Source: Chloroflexota bacterium
Lineage (GTDB): Bacteria; Chloroflexota; Limnocylindria; Limnocylindrales; CSP1-4
Direction: 5' to 3'
Assembly: GCA_046045415.1 (NCBI GenBank)
Contig: JBJOLT010000015.1
Span: 5,988 to 69,987 of the forward strand
DNA length: 64,000 nucleotides
Shown piece after piece: positions 9,527-34,796 of this stretch. Under the pieces are notes generated by a model. That model worked only from the letters and a program-made list of their open reading frames with translations. It made no database searches and was not told where the DNA came from. Made by a program: the position numbers and the translations under genes. Position 1 is the stretch's first letter. Each line of letters starts with the position of its first letter.

Positions 9527-9580
9527 GCGATGACGCGCGAGATGGCGACACTTTACGGTCTCCGGGCGCGCTCGTCATCA

Positions 9581-9602
9581 CCGATCCGCGACCGATCCGC
9601 GA
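9581..9602. repeat. Perfect 11-bp tandem direct repeat (CCGATCCGCGA x2) upstream of the candidate promoter
   Basis: Read directly: ccgatccgcga ccgatccgcga at 9581-9591 and 9592-9602. It could be an operator, but no regulator gene was recognised in the window. Confidence 0.5.
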
Positions 9603-9639
9603 CCGCGCCGAGTCCGACGGGCGCCGGGGGACGGGGCCC

Positions 9640-10569: not shown

Positions 10570-10729
10570 GTGGTCCTCCTCCGTGCCGCGCCGGCGCCGC
10601 GTGAGCGCGTGGTCCATCTCGGCAACGGGACGAGACGCTATCGACCGGCCCGGCCCGTGTCAATCGCGGGGGGTCGCGCCGGGTCGGGGACGTCGTGCGG
10701 CCGCGTGGCGCGGGGCGCATCCTCTCGGC

Positions 10730-11707: not shown

Positions 11708-11795
11708 CGCGGGTCGTACGCTTGCCGGGGCGGCCGGCGGCCGTGCCGCGGCGGTCCTCGATGACGCTGCGGCCTGGCGGATGACGGGAGGGGCG

Positions 11796-14717: not shown

Positions 14718-14794
14718 TGGTCGGGGCGGCCGGATTCGAACCGGCGATCTCGTGCTCCCAAAGCACGCGCGTTGCCAGACTACGCCACGCCCCG
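14718..14794 (-). tRNA. tRNA-Pro (anticodon UGG), with encoded CCA
   Basis: Cloverleaf folded by hand: acceptor CGGGGCG/CGCCCCG, D-stem GCGT/ACGC, anticodon stem CGTGC/GCACG with loop TTTGGGA, T-arm GCCGG-TTCGAAT-CCGGC, discriminator A plus CCA. 77 nt. Confidence 0.9.
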
Positions 14795-19819: not shown

Positions 19820-19864
19820 GGCGGGGGGAGGCCGGCGGAGGTGGTGGTCGAGATCGGTCGCATG

Positions 19865-21166
19865 CTACCGCATCGACCAGCCGGCGCCGAGCCTGAGGAC
19901 CTGACGCGGGCGGAGCTGCCGGCCGCGGGAGGTGTTCGTCGTGTCGACGACGAGCGAGGCCGTCGCATAGACCGCCGCCCAGTCGATCGCGGCATGGGGC
20001 GTGAGCGCCACGACGACATCCGATCCGGCGAGGAGCGGCTCGAGCGCCGTCGAGGTCCGCTCGGTCCCGGCGGCATCGGCGAAGCGAGGGACGTGCGGGT
20101 CGTGGTACTCGACCGCCGCGCCGCGCTCGGCGAGGAGCGCGATCACGTCCGCCGCCGGCGAGTTCCGGGGATCCCGGACGTCGGCCTTGAAGGCGACCCC
20201 GAGGACCCCCACCCGCGCTCCCTTGAGGGCGCGGCCGCGGTCGTTCAGCGCCTCGGCGACGAGGTCCGCGACGTGGCGCGGCATCGCGAGGTTGATGTCG
20301 CCGGCGAGCTCGACGAACCGGTCGACGAAGTCGAACTCGCGGGCCCGCCACGAGAGGTAGTAGGGATCGACCGGGATGCAGTGGCCGCCGACCCCCGGCC
20401 CGGGCCGGAACGGCATGAAGCCGAACGGCTTCGTCGCCGCCCCGTCGATCACCTCCCAGACGTCGAGCCCCATCCGCTCGCAGAGGAGGGCGAGCTGGTT
20501 GACGAGCGCGATGTTCACGTTCCGGAAGACGTTCTCGAGGAGCTTGGCGAGCTCGGCCGCGTCGGGCGAGCTCATCTCGACGACCGTCGCGTTGATCCGG
20601 CGGAGGAGCGTCGCCGCCCGGGCGGTCGCCGCGGGTCCGAGGCCGCCGACGAGCCGCGGGACGTCGCGCCGCGCGCTCGCCGGGTCGCCGGGGTTCACCC
20701 GCTCGGGTGCGAAGGCGAGGTCGAAGTCCCGGCCCGCGGCGAGTCCGCCCGCCTCGAGCGCGGCCCGGAACGGGCCGGTCGTCGTCCCGGGGAAGGTCGT
20801 CGACTGGAGGACGACGAGCTGGCCTCGCCGGAGCGAGCCGCGGACGAGCGCGGCGGCCGAGAGGACCGGCTCGAGATCGGGGTCCTTCGAGCGGGTGATC
20901 GGCGTGGGGACGCAGACGAAGAGCCCGTCGACCGCCCCGAGGTCGGCATCGTCGACGTGGGCGATCGACAGGCCGGTCCCGAGCGCCGCCCGGAGCCGCG
21001 CGTCGTCGACGTCGTCGATCGGCGAACGTCCCGCCGCCAGCTCGGCGACGCGCTCGCGGCTCGCATCGACGCCGACGACCTCGAGGCCCGCCTCGACGAA
21101 CGAGATCGCGAGCGGGAGCCCGACGTAGCCGAGCCCGACGATCGCGAGGCGCTGGTCGGCGGTCAT
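19865..21166 (-). CDS. UDP-glucose/GDP-mannose dehydrogenase-family nucleotide-sugar dehydrogenase (copy 1, WecC/TviB-like)
   Basis: 433 aa with [30 protein letters not shown] and [13 protein letters not shown] at 21166 overlaps the upstream GT stop (ATGA). Confidence 0.85.
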
Positions 21167-22380
21167 CCGGACGAGGATACCGGACGTCCCGGGCCGCTCA
21201 TCAGGCGATCGACGACCGCGAGGTAGCGCGGCGCCTCCGCCTCCCACGAGCGCTCCCGGGCGAGCGCGAGCGTCCGTCCGACCCGCGCCGCCCGCGCCTC
21301 GGGCTCGTCGACGAGCGAGAGGATCGCGGCGGCCATCGCGGCGGCGTCCCCCGGCTCGTACGCGAGGACGCTCCCGGGCGGGCAGGTCGCCTCGACCATC
21401 GGGAGCCGGGTCGCGACGACCGGCTTCCCCATCGCCGCGTACTCGAAGATCTTCGTGGAGAGGCTGACGTCCGTGAAGGCGTCGCGGCGGGTCGGGGCGA
21501 GCCCGACGTCGGCGGCCGCGAGGACGGCGGGGACCTCCTCGAGCGGGATCCGGCCGTGGAGGCGGACGCGGTCGGCGATCCCGCGCGCGGCGGCGAGGGC
21601 GGCGAGCGCGGGGGCGGTGTCGCCCCGGCCGTAGATGTCGAACACGAGCGCGAGCTCCGGGCGCCGCTCGCGGATGAGCGCGACCGCCTCGACGGCCACG
21701 TCGACCTCGTAGGTCGGCGTGAGGGCGCCCGCGTAGACGAGCCGGAGCGTCCCGTCGGCCATGAACGCGCGGACCGGATGGGCCGCGGGGTCGAAGCGGG
21801 CGAGGGCGGCGAGGTTCCGGACGACGCTCACCTTCCGCACCGGGACGCCGGCGGCGAGGAGCCGCGCCTCCAGCGCCTCGTTCACGACGAGGACCTCCGA
21901 TGCGATCGCGACGGCGAGCCGCTCCTGGAGGACGAGGAGCGCGTGGGCGACGGGGTTCGCGGCCGCCGGGAAGCGGCTCCGGAAGAACTCGGGCATCGCC
22001 TCGTGGAAGTCGACGAGGAGCGGGACCCCGGCGAGCCGGAGCGGGAGCGCCGCGGCCGCGAGCAGGTCGGGGATCGTGTGGACCTGGACGAGCCCGTACC
22101 GGCGGCGGCGGTGCGCCCGGACGAGCGCGATCGTCGAGCGGACGAGGAAGTCGAGGTACTCGGCGGCGTACCGGCCGATCCCCGCCCCCTGGTGGCGCTG
22201 GACCCCGAGCCGGGCGACCCGGACCCCGGCGATCGTCGCCTCCGACGGCTCCCCCGGCCGCCGGAGCGCGATGACGTCGACCTCGCGGCCGGCGGCGACG
22301 AGCGCCTCGGCCTCGCGCCTGACGCGCGGATCCTCGTCGTAGTACGAGTGGACGATCATGCAGACCGGCGGGCGGCTCAC
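21163..22380 (-). CDS. Glycosyltransferase, GT4-type (GT-B fold)
   Basis: 405 aa with a C-terminal [17 protein letters not shown] motif. GTG start at 22380 or ATG at 22359. Confidence 0.85.
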
Positions 22381-22440
22381 CCGCTGATGCTATCGGCTCG
22401 GCCGCCGCCACCGTGCGGGGGCGTGCTACCGTGCGCGCCG

Positions 22441-23334
22441 ATGGAGAGAAGCCCCGCGCCGGCCGCCGAGGACGGCGTCGCGCTCCGCTCGACCGCCGAC
22501 CGGCCGGGACCGCTCGGGCTGATCCGCGAGGCGATCGCCGAGACCGCGTCCCGCCGCCGGCTGATCCGCTACCTCGTCCAGGCGGACCTGAAGAAGAAGG
22601 GGTCGGACACCCTCCTCGGGAACGTCTGGTGGATCCTCGACCCGCTCCTCCAGATGGCGGTCTACGTCGTCCTCGTCACCGTCATCTTCCAGCGGACGGT
22701 CCCGGACTACCCGCTCTTCATCTTCGCGGCGATCCTCCCGTGGAAGTGGTACACGAGCAGCGTGAGCGACGCGATCGGCTCGGTCGTCGGCCAGGAGCGG
22801 CTCATCAAGCAGATCCACTTCCCGAAGCTGATCCTCCCGACCGCGACGACGGTCGCGGGGATCGCGAACTTCGGCTTCGGGCTCGTCGCCCTCGCCGGGC
22901 TCCTCGTCGTCTTCTACGCGGACCGCGCGTCGCCGTACCTCCTCCTCCTCCCGGCGATCGCCGCGGTCCAGCTCGTCCTGACGCTCGCGGTCGCGTACGT
23001 CGTCTCCGCCGTGAACGTCTTCTTCCGCGACGTCGCGAACGTGAGCCGGCACGCGCTCCGGATCTGGTTCTACCTCTCGCCCGGGCTCTACGGCGCCGAC
23101 GCGATCGAGGCGCTCAGCGAGACGAACCCGCTCGTCGCCGACCTCATGCGGCTCAACCCGTTCTACACGCTCTTCGAGTCGTACCGGGCGGTGATCTACG
23201 GGACGGCGGCCGGCGGGCCGACGAGCCCGCCGTGGGCGGAGCTCGCCGCGTGGGGCCTCGGTTCGGTCGTCCTCCTCGCGCTCGCGACGTTCGTCTTCAA
23301 GCGGCTCGAGCCCGCGTTCGCGAAGGTCCTCTGA
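22441..23334 (+). CDS. ABC-2 type polysaccharide/teichoic-acid exporter permease (Wzm/TagG-like)
   Basis: 297 aa with DLKKKGSDTLLGNVWWILDPLLQM and 6 predicted TM segments. It is the internal part of ORF 21556..23334. Confidence 0.85.
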   Translation: MERSPAPAAEDGVALRSTADRPGPLGLIREAIAETASRRRLIRYLVQADLKKKGSDTLLGNVWWILDPLLQMAVYVVLVTVIFQRTVPDYPLFIFAAILPWKWYTSSVSDAIGSVVGQERLIKQIHFPKLILPTATTVAGIANFGFGLVALAGLLVVFYADRASPYLLLLPAIAAVQLVLTLAVAYVVSAVNVFFRDVANVSRHALRIWFYLSPGLYGADAIEALSETNPLVADLMRLNPFYTLFESYRAVIYGTAAGGPTSPPWAELAAWGLGSVVLLALATFVFKRLEPAFAKVL

Positions 23335-24179
23335 TGGCCGACGAGCGACTCCATCCCGACGCGGTCGACGCGACCGCCCCGACGGTGATCGACGTCCATG
23401 GGCTCGGCGTCCGCTACAGCCTTCGGCTGACCCGTCGGAACACCGTCCGGCAGTCCTTCGCGAACCTGCTGAAGCCGCGCGAGGGCCCGACCGACTTCTG
23501 GGCGCTCCGCGACGTGACGTTCCGGCTGATGCGGGGCGAGTCGCTCGCGGTGATCGGGCCGAACGGCGCCGGGAAGTCGACGCTCCTCCAGGCGCTCGCC
23601 GGGATCATCACGCCGTCCGAGGGGGAGATCGCCGTCCGCGGCCAGATCTCGAGCCTCCTGACGCTCGGCGCCGGCTTCGACGCGGAGCTGAGCGGGCGCG
23701 ACAACATCATGCTCGCCGGCGCGTTCATGGGGATGGACCACCGGGAGATCGAGCGGCGGATCGACGGGATCATCGCGTTCGCGGACATCGGCCAGTTCAT
23801 CGACGCCCCGATCAAGACGTACTCGTCCGGGATGCGGGCGCGGCTCGGCTTCTCGATCGCGACCTCGGTCGACCCGGACATCCTCCTCCTCGACGAGGTC
23901 CTCGCGACCGGCGACCAGGTCTTCCGGGCGAAGTCGCAGGCGCGGGTCCTCGAGCTCGTCCGCGCGGCGAAGGGGATCGTCCTCGTGACCCACGACATGA
24001 ACTGGGTGACCGAGTTCTGCAACCGGGCGCTCCTCCTCGAGGGAGGCCGGATCGTCGCCGAGGGGGATCCGGCGGAGATCGTCGCGATCCACCGCGAGCA
24101 CTCCGAGCGGGTGAAGGCCGAGAAGCTCGCCGAGGCGGCGCGGCTCCTCGCGGGCGCGCGCGAGGGCGGCGGCCGCTAG
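23334..24179 (+). CDS. Polysaccharide/teichoic-acid exporter ATP-binding protein (Wzt/TagH-like, short form)
   Basis: 281 aa with Walker A GPNGAGKST, YSSGMRARLGF and LLLDEVLATGD. The ATG overlaps the permease stop (TGATG). There is no C-terminal carbohydrate-binding extension. Confidence 0.9.
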   Translation: MADERLHPDAVDATAPTVIDVHGLGVRYSLRLTRRNTVRQSFANLLKPREGPTDFWALRDVTFRLMRGESLAVIGPNGAGKSTLLQALAGIITPSEGEIAVRGQISSLLTLGAGFDAELSGRDNIMLAGAFMGMDHREIERRIDGIIAFADIGQFIDAPIKTYSSGMRARLGFSIATSVDPDILLLDEVLATGDQVFRAKSQARVLELVRAAKGIVLVTHDMNWVTEFCNRALLLEGGRIVAEGDPAEIVAIHREHSERVKAEKLAEAARLLAGAREGGGR

Positions 24180-25579
24180 GCCGGGACCGGCGGGCGCCCG
24201 CCCGCGGGCGGCGGGGCGTCAAGAGGCGGCGGCGCGTCGCGGGGCGGCGGGGGGACGAGCCGTGCCGCGAGCGCGAGGTACGGGACGACGGCGGTCTCCC
24301 AGTTGTACCGCTCCCTGGCGGCGGCGAGCGCGCGGGCCCGCATCGCCTCGCGCTCGTCCGACGGGGCCTCGAGGACCGCTCGGAGCGCCCGCCGCAGGTC
24401 GGCGACGTCGCCCGGGTCCGCGACCGCGCCGATCCGCTCCGCCTCGAGGATCGAGCGCATCACCTCGAGGTCGCGGCCGAGGACGATCGGGGTCCCCGCG
24501 GCGAGCGACTCCCAGAACTTGTTCGGCGTCGAGAGCCGCTGGTTCAGCGAGCCCGCGGGGACGGCGATGATCGTCGCGTCGGCGGAGGCGGTCCAGGCCG
24601 GGACGTCGTCGGGGTGCACCGGCGGGAGCGTCACGTGGCGGCCGGCGTAGCGCGGGTCGCGGTCGCGCTCGCGGAGCCGCTCCGCCCACGGCCCGAAGCC
24701 CAGCATGACGAGCGCCGCGTCCTCGAGGCCGAGGACCGCCTCGGCGGCCTCCTCGAGCCCGCGCTCTCGGCCGAGCCGCCCGAGCCAGAGGACGACGCGC
24801 CGCTCCGGCGGGAGTCCGGCCGCCGCGCGGATGAGGTCGGGCCGGCGCGCGGGCGGGTCCCATCGCGGCTGGCAGTTCGCGAGGACGGTCGGGCGGGTCC
24901 GGACCGGCCAGGTCGCCGCGAGGTGGTCGGCGAGCGGCTCGTTCACGGTCACGACCGCGTCGGCGCGCCGGACCCAGCCCCGCTCCCGTGCCGCGTAGGC
25001 GGCGACGAGCGGGCGCGGCAGCCCGGCGACGTTGTTCGACTCGAGGATCACGTCGATCACGTCGTAGACGACCCGGCCCTCGCGGCCCGCGCGGCGCGCG
25101 GCCGCGGCGAGCGGGAGCGCCACCCCGACGGTGAGGATCCCGCACGCGTGGTAGAGATCGGCCGGCGGCAGCTCCGCGCGGAGCGCCGCCCACCAGCCGC
25201 GGGCGTTGAGCGGCCAGGCGAGCGCCTTGGCGGCGACGTCGACGAGCCGTCGGATCGCCGCGAGCGGCCCGCGCCGACGGCCGCGCGAGCCGGTGGCGGC
25301 GCCGACCGCGTACCGGGCGAACGGGCCGCGCGGACGGTAGCGGCGGATGACGACCCCGGAGCGGCCGTCACGCTCCGTCTCGGGGACCTCGGGGCGCGCG
25401 GCCTCCGCGAGCGCGGCGATCTCCACCTCGAACCCGGCCCCCTCGAGACTCCGGGCGACGCGGAGGCCGCGCGAATAGGGAGCGGCGGCGTTCGCGACGA
25501 GGACGACGGCGCGCCGCACGGGCGGGGGCGCCGGCGGCGGGGCGACCGGGCGGGGGGCGCGACCGGCGGGGCCGCTCAC
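24176..25579 (-). CDS. Glycosyltransferase, tandem paralog A (GT-B fold)
   Basis: This is the C-terminal part of ORF 24176..26698. It contains VYDVIDVILESNN and SLNQRLSTPNKFWESLAAGTPIV. GTG at 25579 overlaps the paralog B stop (GTGA). Alternative GTG at 25519. Confidence 0.8.
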   Translation of the reverse strand: MSGPAGRAPRPVAPPPAPPPVRRAVVLVANAAAPYSRGLRVARSLEGAGFEVEIAALAEAARPEVPETERDGRSGVVIRRYRPRGPFARYAVGAATGSRGRRRGPLAAIRRLVDVAAKALAWPLNARGWWAALRAELPPADLYHACGILTVGVALPLAAAARRAGREGRVVYDVIDVILESNNVAGLPRPLVAAYAARERGWVRRADAVVTVNEPLADHLAATWPVRTRPTVLANCQPRWDPPARRPDLIRAAAGLPPERRVVLWLGRLGRERGLEEAAEAVLGLEDAALVMLGFGPWAERLRERDRDPRYAGRHVTLPPVHPDDVPAWTASADATIIAVPAGSLNQRLSTPNKFWESLAAGTPIVLGRDLEVMRSILEAERIGAVADPGDVADLRRALRAVLEAPSDEREAMRARALAAARERYNWETAVVPYLALAARLVPPPPRDAPPPLDAPPPAGGRPPVPA

Positions 25580-26973
25580 CACGGCCGTCCGGTCAGACGC
25601 CCGTACTCCTCGACGAGGAGTCCCATCTGGCGTTCCCACGAGTACGGGCCGTGCGCCGCGGCGAGGGCGCGGTCGCGGAGCGCGCGCCGCTCCGCCGGCG
25701 GCGCGTCGAGGATCGCCCGGATCGCCGCCGCGATCGCCGCGGGGTCGGTGGGGTCGACGAGCCGGCCGCAGCCGGTCTCCCGGACGATCGCCGCCATCCC
25801 GGGGAGGTCGCTCGCGACGACCGGGACCCCGGCCGCCATCGCCTCGAAGAGCTTGTTCGGCGTCGTCAGCCGGTGGTTGAGCGTCGAGGGCTGGATCGGC
25901 ATCGCGACGACGTCGGCCGCCGCGACCCAGCCGAGGAGCTCCGCCGGCGGGACCGCGGGGAGGAGCCGGACGCGCCCGGCCGCGGGGCCGGCCGGATCCG
26001 CCGCGATCCGCTCCAGCTCCCCGGCGAGCGGCCCGTACCCGAGGAGGACGAGCACCGCGTCCGGGACCCCGCCGATCGCGGCGACGAGCTGCTCGATCCC
26101 GCGATGCGGCGCCAGCCCGCCCTGGTAGAGGACGACGCGCGTCCCGGCGGCGAGTCCGAGCGCTTCGTGGAAGCGGCGCACGGGCGGGTCGCCGGGGTCG
26201 AAGCGGTACGAGCAGTTCATGACGATCGCCGGGAGCGGGACGCCGAAGCGGTCGGCCATCACCTCCGCGTACGGCCGGTTGACCGTCATCACCCGGTCCG
26301 CGCGGCGGGCCCAGCCGCGCTCGACCCGGCCGAGGAGCCGGCGCGCCGGACCGGGGAGACGCGCGAGGTTGTTCGCATCGACGTAGATGTCGCGCGCGTC
26401 GTAGACGACCCGGCCGCCGCGGGCGGCGGCGACCGCGAGCGCGACCGGGATCCCCATGTACGCCATCCCGTGGACGACGTCGGCCGGTGGGGCGACCGCC
26501 CGGGCGGCACGTGCCTGGGACCGGACGGTGAGCGCGATCGCGGCGATCCGGACGGCGGCCGCCACCGCGCGCCGGAGCCGGCCGCGGGACGCGACGCGGG
26601 ATGGCGCGGCGGCCGCCACGCCCGTCGCCGCGGCGTCCGTCGCCGCCGCGTCCGTCGTCGCCGCGCCCGTCGCCGCGGCGCGTCGCCCGGAGCGCCACCG
26701 GGCGACGGCTCGCCGGATCGGGGCCGGGAGCGGAAGGCCGTCCGCGGCGGAGACGGGAAGACGGACGATCCGGTAGCCGGCCGGATCGCGCGCCTCGGCG
26801 GGGAGGCCCGGCGCGAGCCGCGCGAGGACGGTCACCTCGTGGCCGCGGGCGGCGAGCGCGCTCGCGATCCGGAAGGTCCGTGAGTCGAACTCGCCGGTCG
26901 TCGGGAGGACGATCGTGCAGCGCTGCGGGACCGGCGCGTTCGAGCCGTCCGCCGCGGCGCGTCCCCCGCTCAC
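25576..26973 (-). CDS. Glycosyltransferase, tandem paralog B (GT-B fold) with a low-complexity insert
   Basis: Contains VYDARDIYVDANN and STLNHRLTTPNKLFEAMAAGVPVV. GTG at 26973 overlaps the paralog C stop (GTGA). Confidence 0.8.
   Translation of the reverse strand: MSGGRAAADGSNAPVPQRCTIVLPTTGEFDSRTFRIASALAARGHEVTVLARLAPGLPAEARDPAGYRIVRLPVSAADGLPLPAPIRRAVARWRSGRRAAATGAATTDAAATDAAATGVAAAAPSRVASRGRLRRAVAAAVRIAAIALTVRSQARAARAVAPPADVVHGMAYMGIPVALAVAAARGGRVVYDARDIYVDANNLARLPGPARRLLGRVERGWARRADRVMTVNRPYAEVMADRFGVPLPAIVMNCSYRFDPGDPPVRRFHEALGLAAGTRVVLYQGGLAPHRGIEQLVAAIGGVPDAVLVLLGYGPLAGELERIAADPAGPAAGRVRLLPAVPPAELLGWVAAADVVAMPIQPSTLNHRLTTPNKLFEAMAAGVPVVASDLPGMAAIVRETGCGRLVDPTDPAAIAAAIRAILDAPPAERRALRDRALAAAHGPYSWERQMGLLVEEYGRLTGRPW
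26624..26683. repeat. Imperfect 15-nt tandem repeat (4 units) inside glycosyltransferase paralog B
   Basis: Units are gtcgccgcggcgtcc, gtcgccgccgcgtcc, gtcgtcgccgcgccc and gtcgccgcggcgcgt. They encode the T-(G/D)-A-A-(A/T) pentapeptide tract AATGAATTDAAATDAAATGVAAAA. Confidence 0.6.
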
Positions 26974-28382
26974 GCCGTCGTCCGCACCGGCCCGGCCGCC
27001 GTGAGCTCCTCGTAGAGCCGGATCAGCCCGGCCGATTCGGTCTCCCAGTTCCAGCGACCGTGCGCGGCCGCGAGGCAGCGCGCCCGGAGCGTCGCCATCC
27101 CGTCCGGGGGCAGGGCGAGGAGCTCGGCGATCCCCCGGGCGAGCGCCGGGACCGACGCGGGGTCGCAGACGACCCCGAGCGGGCCCGCCGGGTCGCCGAG
27201 GACGATCCGCCGCATCTCGGGGAAGTCGCTCGCGACGACCGGGACGCCGGCCGCGAGGCACTCGAAGAGCTTGTTCGGCGTCGAGAGCGCGTGGTTGAGC
27301 GTCGAGGCCTGGATGGCGACGACACCGACGTCGGCGCCGGCGACCCACTCGACGAGCTCGTCGGGCGGGACGGCGTCGAGGACGTGGAGCCGACCGCCGT
27401 AGCGGGGGTCCGCCGCGGCGCGGTCGAGGTCCTCGCGCATCCGCCCGTAGCCGAGGTAGACCGCGTGGACCCGCTCGAGGCCCGGCTCGAGGATCGCGGC
27501 CGCGAGCTCCTCCAGCCCGCGGTGCGCCGAGAAGCCGCCGTGATAGAGCGCGATCGGCTCACCGGCGGGGACCCCGGCGGCGGTCCTCAGCAGGTCGCGC
27601 CGCTCGATCCGACGCTCGTGGCGGGCCGGCGTGTTGTGGAGGACGACGGTCCGCCGGGGCGCGTACCGGCGCCCGAGCTCCTCCGCGAGCGAGACGTTCA
27701 CGGTCACGAGCGCGTCGGCGGCCGCGACCCAGCGCGCCTCGAGGCGCCGGAACCGGTCGCGGATCCAGCGTGGCCGGTGGGCGTTCGTCCCCGACTCGAG
27801 GAAGATCTCGTGGCTGTCGTAGACGACGCGGCCGCCGTTCCGCGCCGCGGCCCGGAGCGCGGCCGGGAGACCCGTCAGGTCGTGCCCGTGGTAGACGTCG
27901 GCGAGCGGCGCCGCCCGGGCCGCGGCGTCCGCCCAGCCGAGGATCGCGAAGCGCCAGCGGACGAGCCAGTCGAGCAGCGTCCCGCCGGGCGGCTGCGGCC
28001 TCCCGCGCCCCCACGCGAGGTACCACGCGCCGCGGACGACGACCCACGGCATCGCGACGACGGCGAGGGCGGCCGCCGCGGCCGCGTTCAGGAGCCCGAT
28101 CGGGAAGCGGCCGAGCGCGTGCCGGAGCCGGAAGAGGAGCCACGAGCGGGCCCGCCACGGGTAGCGCGCCCAGATCCACCAGCGTCGCCACGCGTGCGGG
28201 ATCGGGACGCGGACGATCTCGACGCCGTCGCGCGTCTCGCGGTCACCCACCCGCGCCGCCGGGTCGGTCGGGCGGGCGAGGATCGTCACCTCGTGACCGG
28301 CCGCGGCGAGCGTCCCCGCCTCGCGGAGCACCCGCGCGTCGGTCCGGCAGTCGTTGAAGACGAACATGACGACGCGGCTCAT
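26970..28382 (-). CDS. Glycosyltransferase, tandem paralog C (GT-B fold)
   Basis: 470 aa. Starts MSRVVMFVFNDCRTDARV and contains VYDSHEIFLESG and STLNHALSTPNKLFECLAAGVPVV. ATG at 28382 overlaps the epimerase stop (ATGA). Confidence 0.85.
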   Translation of the reverse strand: MSRVVMFVFNDCRTDARVLREAGTLAAAGHEVTILARPTDPAARVGDRETRDGVEIVRVPIPHAWRRWWIWARYPWRARSWLLFRLRHALGRFPIGLLNAAAAAALAVVAMPWVVVRGAWYLAWGRGRPQPPGGTLLDWLVRWRFAILGWADAAARAAPLADVYHGHDLTGLPAALRAAARNGGRVVYDSHEIFLESGTNAHRPRWIRDRFRRLEARWVAAADALVTVNVSLAEELGRRYAPRRTVVLHNTPARHERRIERRDLLRTAAGVPAGEPIALYHGGFSAHRGLEELAAAILEPGLERVHAVYLGYGRMREDLDRAAADPRYGGRLHVLDAVPPDELVEWVAGADVGVVAIQASTLNHALSTPNKLFECLAAGVPVVASDFPEMRRIVLGDPAGPLGVVCDPASVPALARGIAELLALPPDGMATLRARCLAAAHGRWNWETESAGLIRLYEELTAAGPVRTTA

Positions 28383-29497
28383 CGGACGCCACCGGCCTCG
28401 AGCGCCGTGACGATCGCCTCGGCCGCTCCGGCCGGCGCGAGGGCGACGGTCGCGGCCCGCTCCCGTGCCGCGGCCGGGGCCGACGACGGCGGTGCGAGGC
28501 GATCGAGCGCCGCGACGGCGAGCGCCGCATCGCGGCCGACGAGGACCGTCAGCCCGCGCGGATCGGCAGCCGCCTCGACCCACTCGGTCGTCCCGCGGAG
28601 CACGAGGCACGGCACCGCGAGCCAGGCGGCCTCGCGCTGGACGCCGCCGGAATCCGTGAGGACGGCGGCGGCGTGGAGCTGCAGGGCGAGCGAGGTCCGG
28701 TAGCCCTGCGGCTCGAGGATCGCGACGCTCGCGGGGAGCTCGATCCCGGCGGCGTCGAGCGCCGCCCGGGTCCCCGGGTGGAGCGCGAGGACGACGGGCC
28801 GCTCCGGGGTGGCGACGGCGGCGAGGAGCGCGCTCCAGCCGCGGAGCGCCGCCTCGTCGCGGTTCTCGGCGCGGTGGACCGTCGCGAAGCAGTAGCCGCC
28901 CGGCCGGAGCGGGATCCCGAGGCGCTCCCCGATCGCGGCGACGGGCGCCGGGTCGCGGATCGCCGCGAGCGTCCGTGCCGCGAGATCCTGCATCAGGTCG
29001 CCGACGAGCGTGACGCCCTCCCCGATCCGTTCGGCCTCGAGGTTCGCGACGGCCGCCGGGGTCGGGGCGAAGCGCCAGCGGGCGAGGTGATCGGCGACGA
29101 TCCGGTTCCGCTCCTCCGGCATCGCCCGGTCGAAGCTCCGGAGCCCCGCCTCGACGTGCGCGAGCGGGATCCCCGCCCGGGTCGCGGCGAGCGCCCCGGC
29201 GAGCGTCGAGTTCGTGTCGCCGTAGACGAGGACCGCGTCCGGGCGCCACTCGGCGAGGAGCGGGTCGAGCGCGTCGAGCATCCGGGCGACCTGCTCGCCG
29301 GCCGTCCCGCCGCCGATCCCGAGGGAGCGGTCGGGCTTCGGGAGGCCGAGCTCGGCGAAGAAGGCGCCGGCCATCGCCTCGTCGTAGTGCTGGCCGGTGT
29401 CGACGAAGCGCTCGTCATGGCGTGCGCGGAGGACCGGGCCGAGCGCCGCCGCCTTGATCAACTGGGGGCGCGTCCCGAGGACGCTGACGATCCGCAC
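28379..29497 (-). CDS. UDP-N-acetylglucosamine (or UDP-GlcNAc3NAcA) 2-epimerase, WecB/WbpI-like
   Basis: 372 aa with VLGTRPQLIKAA, YGDTNSTLAGALAA, HVEAGLRS and TDSGGVQREA. Confidence 0.9.
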   Translation of the reverse strand: MRIVSVLGTRPQLIKAAALGPVLRARHDERFVDTGQHYDEAMAGAFFAELGLPKPDRSLGIGGGTAGEQVARMLDALDPLLAEWRPDAVLVYGDTNSTLAGALAATRAGIPLAHVEAGLRSFDRAMPEERNRIVADHLARWRFAPTPAAVANLEAERIGEGVTLVGDLMQDLAARTLAAIRDPAPVAAIGERLGIPLRPGGYCFATVHRAENRDEAALRGWSALLAAVATPERPVVLALHPGTRAALDAAGIELPASVAILEPQGYRTSLALQLHAAAVLTDSGGVQREAAWLAVPCLVLRGTTEWVEAAADPRGLTVLVGRDAALAVAALDRLAPPSSAPAAARERAATVALAPAGAAEAIVTALEAGGVR

Positions 29498-29525
29498 GCG
29501 GAGAGCCTACCCGCCGCCGGGCGGG

Positions 29526-30956
29526 TCAGCGGCGCGCGGCGGGACGGCGGACGGCGGACGGGACCCCGACGCCGTGGTAGGCGACCCCGCGCGGGAGGGC
29601 GAGCGACCGAAGGCTGTTCCGGCCGTCGTAGAGGACCTGCAGGTGCGGGAAGCAGCCGAAGTCGAGCGTCGCGAAGCGGGGATCCGCGGTCTGGGTGACG
29701 ATCGCGAGCGCGTCGCTCCGCTCGCCCCAGCGGTACGGGGCGGCGCCGAGGGCGGCCGTCTCCGCCTCGTCGAGGAGCGGGTCGTAGGCGGCGACGCGGG
29801 CGCCGTGGAAGGTGAGGCGCTCGATCAGCGGGACCGCCCGGCTGTAGGCGAGCTCCTTCACCCCGTGGCGGTAGGTGAGCCCGAGGACGAGGATCGTCGT
29901 CCCGTCGAGCCCGCCGAGCGCCCGCTGGAGCGCCCTGACCGCGACGCCGACCTGCCCGTCGTTCGTCTTCCGCGACGTCGCGACGAGCTCCATCTCCGGG
30001 GCGCGACTGAGGAGGAAGTGCGGATAGACCGGGATGCAGTGGCCCCCGACGCCGATCCCGGGCTGGTGGATGTGCGAGTAGGGCTGGCTGTTCGCCGCGT
30101 CGATCACCTCCTGGATGTCGACGCCGACCCGGTCGGCATAGCGCGCGAACTCGTTCGCGAGCGCGATGTTCACGTCGCGGTAGGTGGTGTCGGCGAGCTT
30201 GCTGAACTCGGCCGCCTCGGCCGACGACATCGCGACGATCTCCGCGTCGAGGACGGACGCGTAGAAGCGGGCGGCGAGGTCGGTCGCCTCGGGCGTCAGC
30301 CCCCCGACGAGCTTCGGATAGGCGGCGAGGTTCCGGAGCGCCGCCCCGCTGTAGAGCCGCTCCGGCGAGAAGGCGACGTGGAGGTCGCGCTCGATCGACG
30401 TGCCGCTCGCCGCCTCGAGCTTCGGCGCGAAGCGGCCGCGCGTGTCCCCGACCGGGAGCGTGGTCTCGAAGATGACGAGCGAGCCCGGATGGACCCCGGG
30501 CGCGATCGACGCGACCGCGGCGTCCATGTAGCGGTAGTCCGGCTGGTGGGCGTCGTCGAGCATGACCGGGACGATGAGGACGACGACGTCGGACTCGCGC
30601 GCCGCGGCGGCGGCATCGGTCGTCGCGCGGAGCCGGCCGGCGGCGTGGGCGCCCGCGACGAGCTCGGCGAGCCCCGGCTCGTCGTCGACGTGCGACTCGC
30701 CCCGATTGATCGAGTCGACGACCTCGCGTCGGACGTCGACGGCGACGACCTCCCAGCCGTGCGAGGCGTACTGGGCGCAGAGCGGGAGCCCCATCTTGCC
30801 GGCGCCGATCACCGCGACCCGGCCGGCGGTCCCCTCCTCGCCGGTCCACGGGGAGACCCGGCGCGTCTCGCCGTGCGGGCACGGCGCCGCCGGGAGCTCG
30901 ATCGAGCCGCCGAGGAGGCTCGGCCCCGTCGCGCTCGGGCGGGCGACGATCCTCAT
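29526..30956 (-). CDS. Nucleotide-sugar dehydrogenase (copy 2, WbpA-like UDP-GlcNAc 6-dehydrogenase candidate)
   Basis: 476 aa with VAVIGAGKMGLPLC and [18 protein letters not shown] at 30956 overlaps the upstream stop (ATGA). About 45 aa of unusual N-terminal lead precede the Rossmann fold. Confidence 0.8.
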   Translation of the reverse strand: MRIVARPSATGPSLLGGSIELPAAPCPHGETRRVSPWTGEEGTAGRVAVIGAGKMGLPLCAQYASHGWEVVAVDVRREVVDSINRGESHVDDEPGLAELVAGAHAAGRLRATTDAAAAARESDVVVLIVPVMLDDAHQPDYRYMDAAVASIAPGVHPGSLVIFETTLPVGDTRGRFAPKLEAASGTSIERDLHVAFSPERLYSGAALRNLAAYPKLVGGLTPEATDLAARFYASVLDAEIVAMSSAEAAEFSKLADTTYRDVNIALANEFARYADRVGVDIQEVIDAANSQPYSHIHQPGIGVGGHCIPVYPHFLLSRAPEMELVATSRKTNDGQVGVAVRALQRALGGLDGTTILVLGLTYRHGVKELAYSRAVPLIERLTFHGARVAAYDPLLDEAETAALGAAPYRWGERSDALAIVTQTADPRFATLDFGCFPHLQVLYDGRNSLRSLALPRGVAYHGVGVPSAVRRPAARR

Positions 30957-32005
30957 CGGGCCGGGAGCCGCGCGGCGAGGGCGGAGAGGTCGGACGGGCG
31001 CCCGGCGTCGGCGGATTCGAGGAGTGCGGTGGCGATCGCGACCGCCCAGAGGCCGTCCTCGACGTCGACTGCGGGGCGGCCGCCGCCCCGGACCGTCGCG
31101 AGGAAGGCGTCGATCTCCGCGACGAGCGGCTCCCGGTTCTCGACCGGGATCTCCGCGACGTCGCCGGCGAACGTCGTCGCGTAGCCCCCGAGCGTCTGCG
31201 GGTTCGCGACGTCGGCCTTCGTGAAGGTGAGGCGCTGCGTCAGGTAGTCGAGCTCGAACATCCCCTCCTCGCCGATGACGGTCAGCTGGCGTCGCTTCGC
31301 GGGCGTCAGCCAGTTGACGTCGATCATCCCGGTCGCGCCCGACGGGAAGTGGAGGAGGCCGAAGAGGAGGTCCTCGTGCGTCGCGTGGATCCGCTGCGCA
31401 TGCTCGGCGTAGGCGCGGGAGGGGCGCTCGCCGGCGATCCAGCAGAGCATGTCGGCATCGTGCGTGCCGAGGTCCACCGTCACCCCGACGTCGCGGATCC
31501 GCGCGGGGAACGGGCCGGCGCGCCGGCTCGCGATCGCGTAGACCGTCGAGAGGGCGCCCCCCCGGAGGAGCTCGCCGAGCCGGAGGACGGCGGGGTTGAA
31601 GCGCTCGACGTGGCCGACCTGGACCGGGACACCCGCGGCGCGGGAGGCCTCGACGATCCGGAGCCCCTCCTCCACCGACGCGGCGAGCGGCTTCTCGACG
31701 AGGAGCGCGACGCCCCGCTCGATCGCGGCGAGCGCGAGCGGGAGGTGGGCGGTCGTCGGCGCCGCGACGACGACCGCGTCGAGCTCCGCCTCGGCGATCA
31801 TCGCGAGCGGCTCGGAGAAGCCCTGTGCGCCCGATCGCGCCACCGCCTCCTCGACCGCGGCGGCCGCGGGGTCCGCGACCGCGACGAGCCGGCAGCCGGG
31901 CTGCGCGGCGAGGACGCGGAGATGGTTCCGTCCCATCGAGCCGAGTCCCGCGAGGCCGACGCGGACCTCGCGCTCGCCGACCGGCGTCCAGCGCGCGGGG
32001 CTCAT
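30953..32005 (-). CDS. Gfo/Idh/MocA-family oxidoreductase (WbpB-like)
   Basis: 350 aa with VGLAGLGSMGRNHL and EKPLA. ATG at 32005. Confidence 0.85.
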   Translation of the reverse strand: MSPARWTPVGEREVRVGLAGLGSMGRNHLRVLAAQPGCRLVAVADPAAAAVEEAVARSGAQGFSEPLAMIAEAELDAVVVAAPTTAHLPLALAAIERGVALLVEKPLAASVEEGLRIVEASRAAGVPVQVGHVERFNPAVLRLGELLRGGALSTVYAIASRRAGPFPARIRDVGVTVDLGTHDADMLCWIAGERPSRAYAEHAQRIHATHEDLLFGLLHFPSGATGMIDVNWLTPAKRRQLTVIGEEGMFELDYLTQRLTFTKADVANPQTLGGYATTFAGDVAEIPVENREPLVAEIDAFLATVRGGGRPAVDVEDGLWAVAIATALLESADAGRPSDLSALAARLPAR

Positions 32006-32015
32006 CGGGCGGGGC

Positions 32016-33116
32016 TCATCGGGGGGCGGCGTCCCCGTGCCGCGCGACGGCGGCCCGGACGGCGCCGATCACCGTCGCCTGCTCGTCGGCGGTCAGGTTG
32101 GGGTGCATCGGGAGGGCGATCGTCCGCGCCGCCGCGGCGTCGGTCACCGGGAGGTCGGCGTGGAGGCCGCGCTCCATCACGTACTCCTGCCGGTGGACCG
32201 GGAGCGGGTAGTAGACGTCGGCGCCGACCCCGTTCTCCCGGAGATCGGCGAGGATCGCGTCGCGCGCGCCGCCGACCTCGACGGTGTACTGGTGATAGAC
32301 GTGCGTCCGTCCCTCGGGCGTGACCGGGAGCCGGACCGGGAGATCGGCGAACGCCTCGTCGTACCGACCGGCGATCGCCTGGCGGCGTGCGGTGTTCCGC
32401 TCGAGCTTGTCGAGCTGGACGAGCCCGATCGCCGCGTTCAGGTTCGTCATCCGGAAGTTGTAGCCGAGGATCTCGAACGCGTAGCGGGTCCGCATCCCCT
32501 GGTTGCGGTAGAGCCGGAGCCAGTCGGCGAGCCGGTCGTCGTTCGTCGTCACCATCCCGCCCTCGGCGGTCGTCATGTTCTTCGTCGCGTAGAAGCTGAA
32601 GGCGCCGTGGCCGAACGAGCCGGCGCGGCGGCCGCGGTAGGTCGCCCCGTGCGCCTGGCAGGCGTCCTCCACGACCGCGATCCCGTGGCGGTCGGCGATC
32701 GCGCAGATCATGTCCATGTCGGCGACGAGGCCGAAGAGATGGACCGGGACGATCGCGCGGGTCCGCGGCGTGATCGCCTTCTCGATCAGCTTCGCGTCGA
32801 TGACGTAGGTGTCCGGCTCGATGTCGACGAAGACCGGGGTGGCGCCGGTGAAGAGGATCGAGTTCGCCGTCGCCGCGAACGTGTGCGCGACGGTGATCGC
32901 CTCGTCGCCGGGGCCGAGCCCGAGGCCGGCGAAGATCGCCATCTCGGCGAGCGTCCCGTTGCCGAACGCGATCGCGTGGCGGACGCCGCACATCGCGGCG
33001 AACCGCTCCTCGAACTCCGCGACCTGCTTCCCCTGGGCGATCATCCCGCTCCGGAGGACCTCGGTCACCGCCTCGATCTCCTCGGGACCGATGTCCGGCT
33101 TCGCGATCGGGATCAT
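32016..33116 (-). CDS. DegT/DnrJ/EryC1/StrS-family PLP aminotransferase (WbpE-like)
   Basis: 366 aa starting MIPIAKPDIGPEEIEAV. Contains FSFYATKNMTTAEGG (PLP Lys) and YHQYTV. ATG at 33116 overlaps the acetyltransferase stop (ATGA). Confidence 0.9.
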   Translation of the reverse strand: MIPIAKPDIGPEEIEAVTEVLRSGMIAQGKQVAEFEERFAAMCGVRHAIAFGNGTLAEMAIFAGLGLGPGDEAITVAHTFAATANSILFTGATPVFVDIEPDTYVIDAKLIEKAITPRTRAIVPVHLFGLVADMDMICAIADRHGIAVVEDACQAHGATYRGRRAGSFGHGAFSFYATKNMTTAEGGMVTTNDDRLADWLRLYRNQGMRTRYAFEILGYNFRMTNLNAAIGLVQLDKLERNTARRQAIAGRYDEAFADLPVRLPVTPEGRTHVYHQYTVEVGGARDAILADLRENGVGADVYYPLPVHRQEYVMERGLHADLPVTDAAAARTIALPMHPNLTADEQATVIGAVRAAVARHGDAAPR

Positions 33117-33787
33117 GCGCTCGCTCCATCGGCTGGGGCGTCGGCCCGCTCGGCGAGCGCGTCGGCCCTGGGGTCGTACCGGTAGGCGCGCCCGCATCGG
33201 GCGCAGTGGAGACTCGGATCGTGAGCGTACAACTCGGGCTTCCCCGGCGCCGGGTTCCCGTGCTCGTCCTTCAGCCGGTCGCCGCACGCGCAGACCCAGC
33301 CGATCCGGCGGGCCGGGTTGCCGGCGACGAGCGCGTGGTCGGGGACGGTCCTCGTGACGACCGCCCCGGCCCCGACGGTCGCGAAGCGCCCGACGTCCAC
33401 CCCCGCGACGACGACGGCGCCCGCACCGATCGAGCAGCCGTAGCGGAGCGTGATCGGGCTGACGACCCAGTCGGCGGCGCGGGCGAGCTCGCCGGTCGCG
33501 GTGATCGCGCGGGGGAACCGGTCGTTCGTGAGGATCGCGTTCGGGCCGATGAAGACGCCGTCCTCGACCGTGACGCCGTGGTAGACGAGCGCGGCGTTCT
33601 GGATCTTCACCCGGTCGCCGATGACGACGTCCTCGTCGATGAACGCATCGCGGCCCACGATGCAGCCCGCGCCGATCGTCGCGCGGTTCCGCACCTGGGC
33701 GCGGTGCCAGACGCTCGATCCGGCGCCGATCGCGACGTCCGCCTCGATGTCGGCCGACGGGTGGACGCGCGCAGAGGGGTCGATCAC
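33113..33787 (-). CDS. Left-handed beta-helix (hexapeptide) N-acetyltransferase (WbpD-like) with a C-terminal Cys-rich tail
   Basis: 224 aa with hexapeptide repeats (IGAGSSV, IGAGCIV, IGDRVKI, IGAGAVV). The tail is WVCACGDRL...HCARCG. GTG at 33787. Confidence 0.85.
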   Translation of the reverse strand: MIDPSARVHPSADIEADVAIGAGSSVWHRAQVRNRATIGAGCIVGRDAFIDEDVVIGDRVKIQNAALVYHGVTVEDGVFIGPNAILTNDRFPRAITATGELARAADWVVSPITLRYGCSIGAGAVVVAGVDVGRFATVGAGAVVTRTVPDHALVAGNPARRIGWVCACGDRLKDEHGNPAPGKPELYAHDPSLHCARCGRAYRYDPRADALAERADAPADGASA

Positions 33788-33863
33788 GGGTGGGAAGGGC
33801 TCCTTCGACGGCGCGCGACGGGGGCTCGGCGAGCGCGGCGCGAGCGCGACCGAGGCGTGGCGG

Positions 33864-33869
33864 AGTATA
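33864..33869 (-). promoter_or_regulatory. Candidate -10 box (TATACT) for the minus-strand wbp/glycosyltransferase operon
   Basis: This is the only AT-rich hexamer in the 178-nt spacer upstream of the acetyltransferase gene. It fits TAnnnT. No convincing -35. Confidence 0.3.
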
Positions 33870-33965
33870 CCGGAGCGGCCCTTCGGGACCCGGCGGGCGA
33901 CGGGCCGATCCCGTCGGTCCGACGCGCTCGGGCAGGTGGGCGCGGGCCGGTCGCCCTCCCCGGCC

Positions 33966-34796
33966 TCATCGCCGGCGGACCGCCGCCGCGACGGCCGCAC
34001 CCTGGCGGAGGAGCGCGCGGACGAGGCGCTCGACGAGCCGGCCCGCTCCGGTCGCACGGAGCTCGTCGCGGCGGAGGGCGAGGACGAGGACGAGCGCCTC
34101 CCAGATGATCCGGCGCGACATCTTCGAGCGGCCCACCCGACGGTCGCGGAAGGTGATCGGGACCTCCCGGATCCGTGCGCGGCCCCGCGCGGCCCGGTAG
34201 GTCATCTCGATCTGGAAGACGTAGCCGCCGGCATGGATCCCGCCGAGGTCGATCGCCGCGAGCGTCGCGGCGCGCCACGCCTTGAAGCCGCCGGTGAGGT
34301 CGCCCGGGCCGAGCCGGAGGACGAGCTTGGCGAAGAGGCTCCCGCCGCGGGAGACGATCCGACGACCGATCCCCCAGTCCTCGACCCGCCCGCCGCGGCA
34401 GTACCGAGAGCCGATGACGAGGTCGGCCTCGCCGCGCTCGAGCGGCCCGAGGAGCGCCGGCAGCGCGTCAGGATCGTGGGACCAGTCGGCATCCATCTGG
34501 ACGACGGTCCCGGCACCGCCGGCGAGGGCGACCCCGAAGCCGTCGACGTAGGCGCGCCCGAGTCCCTCCTTCCCGGCTCGATGGCGGACCCTGATCCGCG
34601 GGTCGGCGGCGGCGAGCTCGTCGGCGAGCCGGCCGGTCCCGTCCGGCGAGGCGTCGTCGACGACGAGGAGCGTCGCCTCGGGGAGCGCCTCGAGGATGGC
34701 GCGCGCGATCGGGGCGAGGTTCTCCGCCTCGTCGTACGTCGGGAGGACCACCCACGTCCCGGCGGGACGGGGCTCCGCGGTCGTTCGGCGCGCCAC
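33966..34796 (-). CDS. Polyprenol-phosphate mannose/glycose synthase (GT2, Ppm1/DPM1-like)
   Basis: 276 aa with VVLPTYDEAENL, VVDDASPDGT, VQMDADWSHDP and GGFKAW. Confidence 0.85.
   Translation of the reverse strand: MARRTTAEPRPAGTWVVLPTYDEAENLAPIARAILEALPEATLLVVDDASPDGTGRLADELAAADPRIRVRHRAGKEGLGRAYVDGFGVALAGGAGTVVQMDADWSHDPDALPALLGPLERGEADLVIGSRYCRGGRVEDWGIGRRIVSRGGSLFAKLVLRLGPGDLTGGFKAWRAATLAAIDLGGIHAGGYVFQIEMTYRAARGRARIREVPITFRDRRVGRSKMSRRIIWEALVLVLALRRDELRATGAGRLVERLVRALLRQGAAVAAAVRRR

Follow-up and report, generated by a model that had tools for sequence, protein, structure and literature searches.

A candidate ABC-dependent acidic envelope glycan locus in Candidatus Limnocylindria (Chloroflexota)

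Described systems and the locus in question

The closest characterised analogue, in a monoderm bacterium, of the locus considered here is the utrA-J gene cluster of Streptomyces griseus. In the report on that cluster (PMC13274773), Wbp-like enzymes feed a teichuronic-acid-like chain, ->3)GalNAc-alpha(1->4)-ManNAc3NAcA-beta(1-> (ManNAc3NAcA, 2,3-diacetamido-2,3-dideoxy-mannuronic acid), that is carried on wall teichoic acid (WTA). The ManNAc3NAcA polymer is described there as chemically proven in this monoderm genus, and the authors see no resemblance between the utr genes and the tua operon of Bacillus subtilis (PMC13274773). Our subject is a group of 13 genes in a 64 kb stretch of DNA (termed the window) from contig JBJOLT010000015.1, which derives from a member of Candidatus Limnocylindria in the phylum Chloroflexota. 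These genes very probably direct the formation of an acidic glycan that contains a diacetamido-uronate and leaves the cytoplasm through an ATP-binding cassette (ABC) transporter. The whole explanation that we favour, namely that a probably monoderm bacterium uses them to make an acidic envelope heteropolysaccharide by an ABC-dependent pathway, appears to us somewhat better than an even bet.

Like utr, the locus belongs to a monoderm (probably so in the present case) and combines Wbp-like precursor genes with an anionic polymer containing ManNAc3NAcA (predicted in the present case), and in both systems the set of tailoring genes changes from one species to another. The two systems differ in that the utr chain is built on ribitol-phosphate WTA, with no dedicated exporter described among the utr genes in the portion of the report consulted (PMC13274773), whereas the present locus carries its own Wzm/Wzt pair. 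In addition, the glycosyltransferases (GTs) of utr are presented as TarS/TarM-like, whereas those encoded here form a distinct family of GT4 paralogues; the fold matches of one of them, GT4d, are to generic GT4 enzymes, and the utr enzymes are set apart from it here by their description.

These comparisons bear on one alternative to the favoured explanation, in which the chain would not be an independent polymer but an extension of a teichoic-acid-like backbone whose genes lie elsewhere, on the model of the Streptomyces hybrid of teichuronic acid (TUA) and WTA. Such a scheme would agree with the way in which the Wbp-like enzymes and GTs of utr build their polymer on WTA, and with the fact that the present locus encodes no initiating enzyme. 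However, the dedicated exporter argues against it, as do the lack of Tag/Tar polyol-phosphate genes in the window and the lack of any TarM/TarS-type enzyme among the 50 GT4d fold matches listed, and we regard this scheme as improbable.

The B. subtilis tuaABCDEFGH operon also specifies an anionic, uronic-acid-containing wall polymer of a monoderm, and likewise includes GT4 enzymes and an NDP-sugar dehydrogenase. That pathway relies on a phosphoglycosyl transferase (TuaA), a Wzx flippase (TuaB), a Wzy polymerase (TuaE) and a chain-length protein (TuaF), whereas none of these functions is encoded in the window. Matches of the present genes to the NCBIfam models for TuaC, TuaH and TuaD score 26-145 bits against cutoffs of 550-700. 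A tua-type pathway was rejected because Wzx, Wzy and phosphoglycosyl transferase are all missing. A first-pass annotation, made from the DNA letters and open reading frames (ORFs) of the same stretch, is not overturned by this comparison: the gene content matches neither the tua operon nor the characterised Streptomyces utr cluster. The locus is not a copy of a characterised pathway, yet it is built entirely from known module types.

Precursor module, exporter and glycosyltransferases

The window has a GC content of approximately 75%, with long spurious ORFs in all six frames, and Limnocylindria (Ellin6529) is known as a high-GC lineage (PMC10608941). Genes were called from third-position GC with a suffix log-odds caller, and protein classes were assigned from matches to Pfam, NCBIfam and PDB entries. 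Exactly 13 genes were called between 19865 and 34796 (Table 1). The gene number, coordinates and classes given in the first-pass annotation were reproduced, including its five genes for a diacetamido-uronic acid precursor, its four GT-B transferases (Pfam matches in all four, and a modelled GT-B fold for GT4d) and its short Wzt without a carbohydrate-binding domain.

All five enzyme classes of the Wbp/Wlb type are encoded contiguously between 28379 and 33787. From these assignments we infer that the module corresponds to the five-enzyme route to UDP-ManNAc3NAcA (PMC10622841) and that a second N-acetyl-hexosaminuronic acid is made in addition. The epimerase matches Pfam Epimerase_2, scores above the cutoff of TIGR00236, and has as its top PDB match the Thermus thermophilus UDP-GlcNAc3NAcA 2-epimerase (8sxv), with 280 bits compared with 134 bits for Escherichia coli WecB. 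The 3-dehydrogenase belongs to Pfam GFO_IDH_MocA, and its top PDB match is 3q2k, which we take to be Bordetella pertussis WlbA; the top NCBIfam model, an archaeal UDP-GlcNAc 3-dehydrogenase, is matched with 262 bits, under its cutoff of 450. The aminotransferase is a clear member of Pfam DegT_DnrJ_EryC1 (427 bits). Its specificity is taken from context because perosamine synthetase (284 bits) outscores WbpE (3nyu, 252 bits) among PDB matches. The acetyltransferase matches Pfam Hexapep and, with 132 bits, the PDB entry 3mqg, a 'Lipopolysaccharides biosynthesis acetyltransferase' that is presumably Bordetella WlbB.

Two dehydrogenases could provide the oxidation at C6. DH1 carries the N-terminal, central and C-terminal UDPG_MGDP_dh domains of Pfam and scores 376 bits with TIGR03026, above cutoff, and its top PDB matches are UDP-ManNAc dehydrogenase (4r16), NDP-GalNAcA dehydrogenase (3g79) and Cap5O. 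DH2 scores 340 bits with TIGR03026 and matches 4r16 and Cap5O. Both fall in the UDP-N-acetyl-hexosamine dehydrogenase clade, where DH1 lies closer than DH2 to enzymes of the TviB/GalNAcA type. UDP-GlcNAc would be converted to UDP-ManNAc3NAcA by the successive action of 6-dehydrogenase, 3-dehydrogenase, aminotransferase, N-acetyltransferase and 2-epimerase, with the sequence fitting either order of oxidation at C6 and C3. This order differs between the methanococcal and Pseudomonas pathways, and the 3-dehydrogenase encoded here best fits the archaeal model, though under its cutoff. DH1, as a second 6-dehydrogenase of the N-acetyl-hexosamine type, may supply another N-acetyl-hexosaminuronic acid.

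The same five enzyme classes are found as WbpA/B/E/D/I in Pseudomonas aeruginosa, as Wlb proteins in B. pertussis and as homologues in T. thermophilus, and here they are contiguous. Pseudomonas places the Wbp-made sugar in a Wzx/Wzy-dependent O-antigen, and the host of the present locus differs in belonging to Chloroflexota, a phylum treated in the literature as free of lipopolysaccharide (LPS).

The permease Wzm matches Pfam ABC2_membrane with 23.9 bits, just below the cutoff of 26.9, and the NCBIfam galactan Wzm/RfbD model with an E value of 1e-14, also below cutoff. Its nearest solved structures are TarG (6jbh, E 6e-16) and Aquifex Wzm (6m96, E 1e-14). Wzt matches Pfam ABC_tran together with the NCBIfam models for galactan Wzt/RfbE (192 bits) and TagH (177-186 bits), in each case under the equivalog cutoff. 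Models of the nucleotide-binding domain (NBD) span residues 57-253 of the 281 residues of Wzt, and no carbohydrate-binding module (CBM) is present. A screen of the locus for a coiled-coil, kinase or methyltransferase terminator was also negative.

Because Wzt consists of the NBD only and there is no terminator, we place the locus with the CBM-less transporters of the Klebsiella O2a type, whose behaviour provides the framework used here (PMC11231755). Export would probably proceed in the Klebsiella O2a or TarGH mode, with elongation coupled to export and no terminal cap being read. As in Klebsiella pneumoniae O2a (PMC11231755) and TarGH/TagGH, the ATPase is NBD-only, the GTs are cytoplasmic, Wzx and Wzy are lacking and the initiating transferase would be encoded elsewhere. 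The present system differs from these in having neither a lipid A-core acceptor nor polyol-phosphate chemistry, and in using four separate single-module GT4 proteins rather than multi-module polymerases. The features that define the O9a-type subclass, a C-terminal CBM on Wzt and a terminator, are not present in the locus.

Three of the four GT4 enzymes are paralogues with 34-44% mutual identity: GT4b (Pfam Glycos_transf_1) is 34% identical to GT4d and 43% identical to GT4c, and GT4c (Glyco_trans_1_4 and Glyco_transf_4) is 44% identical to GT4d. GT4a (Glyco_trans_1_4 and Glyco_trans_4_4) is more distant, with 29-33% identity to GT4c and GT4d across its C-terminal half and approximately 45% over an N-terminal stretch of about 60 residues. 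Matches of these proteins to NCBIfam equivalog models (TuaC, TuaH, WcaI, stp and others) are all far under cutoff. GT4d has more than 1100 homologues, those listed being 58-96% identical, and the named ones are assigned to "Candidatus Limnocylindrales bacterium". An AlphaFold model of GT4d with a mean pLDDT of 88 has the canonical retaining-type GT-B fold, and the top Foldseek matches are MshA, sucrose-phosphate synthase, PimA and BshA. The model also contains a helical insertion of about 95 residues (64-157) that is rich in Trp and Arg, is predicted with lower confidence and includes one moderately hydrophobic segment; Trp and Arg residues within it are invariant across the family. GT4b, GT4c and GT4d would share this conserved insertion, which plausibly contacts the membrane interface or the acceptor. 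The four retaining GT4 transferases would extend a primer at the cytoplasmic face.

The primer itself would be linked to polyprenyl phosphate by a phosphoglycosyl transferase encoded elsewhere. Consistent with a list of absences in the first-pass annotation, no Wzx, Wzy, chain-length regulator, phosphoglycosyl transferase, LCP protein or ligase was found by Pfam and NCBIfam among the genes called in the entire window, nor was any GT-C enzyme, oligosaccharyltransferase, Wzy_C/WsaB-type ligase, WaaL, lipid A gene or outer-membrane gene. A screen for polytopic proteins combined with Pfam in approximately 45 related loci of at least 11 kb likewise found no Wzx/Wzy-like or WecA-like polytopic protein, and yielded only sporadic GT87/GT-C enzymes and AT3-SGNH acyltransferases. 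The search for WecA/TagO and LCP genes that had been recommended earlier gave no candidate in the window or in these related loci. Genes such as wecA, tagO and those for LCP proteins usually lie outside ABC-dependent clusters, and the missing initiating transferase and ligase are therefore expected rather than remarkable.

The eight minus-strand genes from 33787 down to 24176 had been described as linked almost entirely by ATGA/GTGA overlaps, which were taken to imply tight stoichiometric co-translation. Overlaps of 4 nt do occur at five of the seven junctions (D>E, B>A, I>GT4d, GT4d>GT4c and GT4c>GT4b, the last one only if GT4b starts at 25579 and not at 25519), while 10 nt separate the genes at E>B and 28 nt those at A>I. 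These overlaps support translational coupling and not a fixed stoichiometry. Elsewhere in the locus, GT4a and DH1 overlap by 4 nt, and wzm and wzt by 1 nt (TGATG). Overlaps of 4 nt thus occur at 6 of 10 same-strand junctions within the locus, compared with 3 of 34 in the rest of the window (Fisher p = 0.002, or 0.009 after the start-dependent GT4b junction is dropped), and this density exceeds chance. The 4 nt overlaps indicate that the genes from wbpD to GT4b probably form one translationally coupled operon, beside which wzm-wzt (plus strand) and GT4a-DH1 (minus strand) would constitute a divergent pair. Scans with Rfam and for tRNAs, promoters and terminators gave no match within the locus. 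The convergent genes wzt and GT4b also overlap by 4 nt (24176-24179), where the palindrome CTAG contains the stop codon of each gene, and no terminator-like hairpin was found between them.

Table 1. Genes of the glycan locus, with coordinates in the window and the databases or tools behind each class assignment
Gene	Predicted product	Coordinates	Strand	Basis
DH1	UDP-N-acetyl-hexosamine-type 6-dehydrogenase	19865-21166	-	Pfam, TIGR03026, PDB
GT4a	GT4 (GT-B) transferase	21163-22380	-	Pfam
wzm	ABC-2 polysaccharide-export permease	22441-23334	+	Pfam, NCBIfam, PDB
wzt	ABC ATPase, 281 residues	23334-24179	+	Pfam, NCBIfam
GT4b	GT4 transferase	24176-25579 (alternative start 25519)	-	Pfam
GT4c	GT4 transferase	25576-26973	-	Pfam
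GT4d	Retaining-type GT-B transferase	26970-28382	-	Pfam, AlphaFold, Foldseek
wbpI	WbpI-type UDP-2,3-diacetamido-2,3-dideoxy-glucuronate 2-epimerase	28379-29497	-	Pfam, TIGR00236, PDB
DH2 (wbpA)	WbpA-like UDP-N-acetyl-hexosamine 6-dehydrogenase	29526-30956	-	Pfam, TIGR03026, PDB
wbpB	WbpB/WlbA-like NAD-dependent UDP-sugar 3-dehydrogenase (GFO/IDH/MocA)	30953-32005	-	Pfam, PDB
wbpE	WbpE-like pyridoxal phosphate-dependent sugar aminotransferase (DegT family)	32016-33116	-	Pfam, PDB
wbpD	WbpD/WlbB-like hexapeptide N-acetyltransferase, first in the eight-gene run	33113-33787	-	Pfam, PDB
GT2	DPM1/Ppm1-type glycosyltransferase	33966-34751 (alternative start 34796)	-	Pfam, PDB

Conservation, host envelope and destination of the polymer

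A scan of species-representative genomes returned 532 relatives, of which the best 80 were inspected. Seventy-eight of these are labelled Chloroflexota or Ca. Limnocylindria, and the remaining two are labelled Anaerolinea sp. and Methylomirabilota. An actinobacterial origin, which a GC content near 75% might suggest, was rejected in view of these labels and of the names given to homologues. As judged by tblastn, the conserved gene order is GT2, WbpD-E-B-A-I, GT4d, GT4c, GT4b, Wzt/Wzm on the opposite strand, GT4a, DH1, a peptidyl-prolyl isomerase (PPIase) and MazG. Among the 28 related loci of at least 20 kb, all selected through homology to GT4d, 25 have all five wbp genes and 24 have both Wzm and Wzt, and the full core (four or more wbp genes, two or more of the GT4b/c/d paralogues, and Wzm/Wzt) is present in 23. 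The corresponding counts are 18 for GT2, 18 for GT4a and 8 for DH1, and DH2 is syntenic in 27. Around this core lie variable genes for AT3-SGNH acyltransferases, GT87, CgeB-like and other GTs, as well as ORFs that by eye appear methyltransferase-like or NDP-sugar epimerase/dehydratase-like. An apparently conserved backbone with variable tailoring resembles the organisation of O-antigen, capsule and Streptomyces TUA loci. The locus is not atypical in GC content and its neighbours are housekeeping genes (mreB, mreC, a PrsA/SurA-like PPIase and mazG), and we therefore regard it as a core locus and not a mobile island.

The type of envelope that receives the glycan depends on the host, which had been proposed to be monoderm. 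In Chloroflexota, genes for LPS, Lol and BamA, and specifically lpx, kds, lol and bamA, are reported to be absent, and a single membrane has been deduced (PMC6169038, PMC8871954, PMC7332563). The window also carries a heliorhodopsin gene (949-1770, minus strand; Pfam PF18761, E 1.7e-79), and heliorhodopsins are reported from monoderms only (bioRxiv 10.1101/356287; PMC8612252). A monoderm host is supported by the taxonomic position, the literature on the phylum and the heliorhodopsin, which agrees with the earlier proposal, with the qualification that the envelope of the phylum is still debated.

If the host were instead diderm, ABC-dependent assembly at this locus would yield an LPS O-antigen. 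Both the Wbp pathway and Wzm/Wzt are classic parts of O-antigen systems, the flanking PPIase has Pfam matches to a SurA-like N-terminal region, and some Chloroflexales have an "enigmatic" diderm-like outer layer when viewed by cryo-electron tomography (PMC7332563). In contrast, the assignment to Chloroflexota, from which lpx, kds, lol and bamA are reported absent, the heliorhodopsin, and the lack of WaaL, lipid A or outer-membrane genes in the 64 kb examined make an O-antigen very improbable, and it was rejected on the basis of taxonomy, literature and heliorhodopsin.

The favoured explanation thus leads from cytoplasmic synthesis to an exported acidic polymer, which an enzyme with its gene outside the locus would then transfer to peptidoglycan or to a different anchor in the envelope. 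Once anchored, it would act as a teichuronic-acid-like anionic wall polymer. We rate the chance that the product is in fact a wall-linked polymer of this kind as a little short of even. The first-pass annotation had presented the locus as an ABC-dependent pathway for a teichuronic-acid-like or secondary cell-wall polymer. An ABC-dependent glycopolymer, its precursor module and a Wzt without CBM stand, whereas linkage to peptidoglycan is not established over a capsule, a lipoglycan or a protein glycan.

A capsule, an exopolysaccharide or a lipid-anchored glycan (lipoglycan) would require the same steps of synthesis and export and would differ in its end-point, there being no attachment to peptidoglycan. 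Neither an LCP protein nor another ligase is encoded in the window or in related loci, the tailoring genes differ between species in the manner of capsule and O-antigen loci, and some Chloroflexota have the unexplained outer layer noted above. LCP genes often lie outside wall-polymer clusters, however, and a position in the core genome combined with class-wide conservation fits a structural wall component better. We consider this end-point rather unlikely, although it deserves to be taken seriously.

Alternatively, the glycan could be transferred to a surface or S-layer protein, as occurs in Geobacillus, where gene clusters specify ABC-dependent O-glycosylation of the S-layer, or by analogy with archaeal N-glycans, in which diacetamido-uronic acids are abundant. 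Several top NCBIfam matches are archaeal (UDP-GlcNAc 3-dehydrogenase, UDP-ManNAc dehydrogenase and AglJ), all of them under cutoff, and a gene for a secreted 595-residue protein with Ig-like domains adjoins GT2. However, the archaeal matches may simply mirror the choice of families for which NCBIfam offers models, synteny of the secreted protein is limited to two relatives, and neither an oligosaccharyltransferase nor a Wzy_C/WsaB-type ligase was found in the window or in relatives. A protein-linked glycan is accordingly given a low probability.

Several points weigh against the favoured explanation of an ABC-dependent acidic envelope heteropolysaccharide. The host is uncultured. Family membership and context, rather than specificity-level matches, underlie the assignments of the aminotransferase and the two dehydrogenases, with NCBIfam equivalog scores under cutoff, and the donor and acceptor specificities of the GT4 enzymes are not readable from sequence. 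No initiating transferase, LCP protein or ligase is found in the window or in the approximately 45 related loci. Genes were called only crudely in the related loci, and the synteny figures are conditional on GT4d. Finally, whether Chloroflexota are monoderm continues to be debated (PMC7332563, PMC8871954).

A bolder proposal can be formulated, in which the principal anionic wall polymer of Limnocylindria is a poly(diacetamido-uronate) that substitutes for teichoic acid and forms the outer electron-dense layer observed in Chloroflexota of the monoderm type. A GT4 subfamily not recognised before would polymerise the chain, and its Trp/Arg-rich helical insertion would couple elongation directly to the CBM-less Wzm/Wzt. 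We view this combination as speculative and unlikely to hold as a whole.

Chloroflexota are abundant in soils and lakes and the architecture of their envelope is disputed; the locus is a concrete genetic candidate for part of the envelope of Limnocylindria. Our literature search found no study of teichuronic acid or Wzm/Wzt in Chloroflexota and no wall glycopolymer pathway for the phylum. The prediction made here would extend ManNAc3NAcA-containing teichuronic-acid-like polymers, proven in Streptomyces, to a second monoderm phylum, and it offers targets for heterologous biochemistry, namely the synthesis of the UDP-sugar and the activities of the GT4 enzymes. The machinery itself is conventional, and the interest lies mainly in a handle on the poorly understood Chloroflexota envelope.

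GT2 and other neighbouring genes

The first-pass annotation had counted GT2, as a Ppm1-like polyprenol-phosphate glycosyltransferase, among the thirteen genes of the locus. The family assignment is well founded. GT2 matches Pfam Glycos_transf_2 and, over the catalytic domain only, the dolichol-phosphate mannose synthase (DPMS) of Pyrococcus furiosus in PDB (E 7e-29), and its homologues with 73-81% identity bear automated names such as polyprenol monophosphomannose synthase. The protein contains the motifs VVDDASPDGT and QMDADWSHD, which fit the patterns DD[AG]S[PT]DGT and MD[AG]D..H that we take to be hallmarks of DPM1; among 120 homologues, MD[AG]D is present in 117 and DD[AG]S[PT]DGT in 75. 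No hydrophobic transmembrane (TM) segment was found in GT2, which is a soluble catalytic domain only and differs in this respect from the archaeal DPMS with its TM part. GT2 is thus a bona fide DPM1/Ppm1-family catalytic domain.

Its membership in the pathway is another matter, and the odds that GT2 is functionally tied to the polymer are about even. GT2 lies 178 nt upstream of wbpD in the window. In most relatives an extra GT4 gene and a DUF3048 gene, and in many also a small ORF, lie between GT2 and wbpD (for example L009:1948-3234, L011:2176-3123 and L011:3647-4426, with equivalents in about 30 loci), and the adjacency in the window arises because all three are absent from it. The conserved proximity of GT2 is weak evidence because PPIase and MazG, which are functionally unlinked, are equally syntenic. 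The product of the small ORF in relatives has 150-260 residues and a C-terminal hydrophobic tail, and the DUF3048 gene is on the opposite strand.

GT2 most likely makes a polyprenol-phosphate-hexose for extracytoplasmic GT-C enzymes, and its product may decorate the polymer or serve an unrelated glycosylation. Systems in which a polyprenol-phosphate-sugar synthase serves decoration by GT-C enzymes include those of mycobacterial Ppm1 and PpgS and those of the GtrB/GacI type, with which GT2 shares a DPM1/Ppm1-type catalytic domain. The window was found to contain no GT-C, flippase or small activator gene that could act with GT2, and a GT87 (GT-C) enzyme adjoins the locus only in the relatives L066 and L067. 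In a few metagenome-assembled genomes, GT87 and other proteins with 10-12 TM segments and without a Pfam match are encoded beside the locus (L067:17826-18929 and 19022-20605, L066, and L019:3177-5252), and a polyprenol-phosphate sugar might serve as their substrate.

The genes that flank the locus on either side were also considered. Between GT2 and mreC, where mreD might be expected, lies the gene for the secreted 595-residue protein (34881-36668, minus strand), which has FlgD-type Ig-like domains and is syntenic only in L009 and L042. Directly downstream of DH1, after a gap of 45 nt, is the gene for a 574-residue PPIase (18095-19819, minus strand) with three parvulin domains, a single hydrophobic segment at the N terminus and the SurA-like N-terminal region. 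Many relatives have it in synteny, with an identity of only about 40%. A membrane protein with a DedA/VTT domain is encoded about 4 kb from the locus (14806-15501, minus strand), and members of this family are implicated in polyprenyl-phosphate recycling.

Approximately 8 kb from the locus is the gene for a UPF0182 membrane protein of 1063 residues (42526-45717, minus strand). In the related loci L012, L014, L025, L029, L058 and L064, a homologue with 44% identity resides within the glycan locus itself, between a GT4 gene and wzm. In a recent preprint the UPF0182 family is tied to regulation of FtsH and, given this link, UPF0182 was not adopted as a component of the pathway.

Further from the locus, a 692-residue protein (57030-59108, minus strand) carries a SpoIIIAA-like AAA region (TIGR02858, 73 bits, below cutoff) in a lineage that does not sporulate, and it is followed by a 346-residue ORF without a Pfam match (59162-60202). 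A gene for a cyclic-di-AMP receptor (PF06153) is divergent from an adjoining GAF-GGDEF diguanylate cyclase gene (50570-52047). At the other end of the window, the region 2988-13538 encodes enzymes of myo-inositol catabolism (IolB and IolD), a sugar ABC importer and PTS enzyme I, and a tRNA-Pro(TGG) at 14718-14794 is the only RNA gene in the window.

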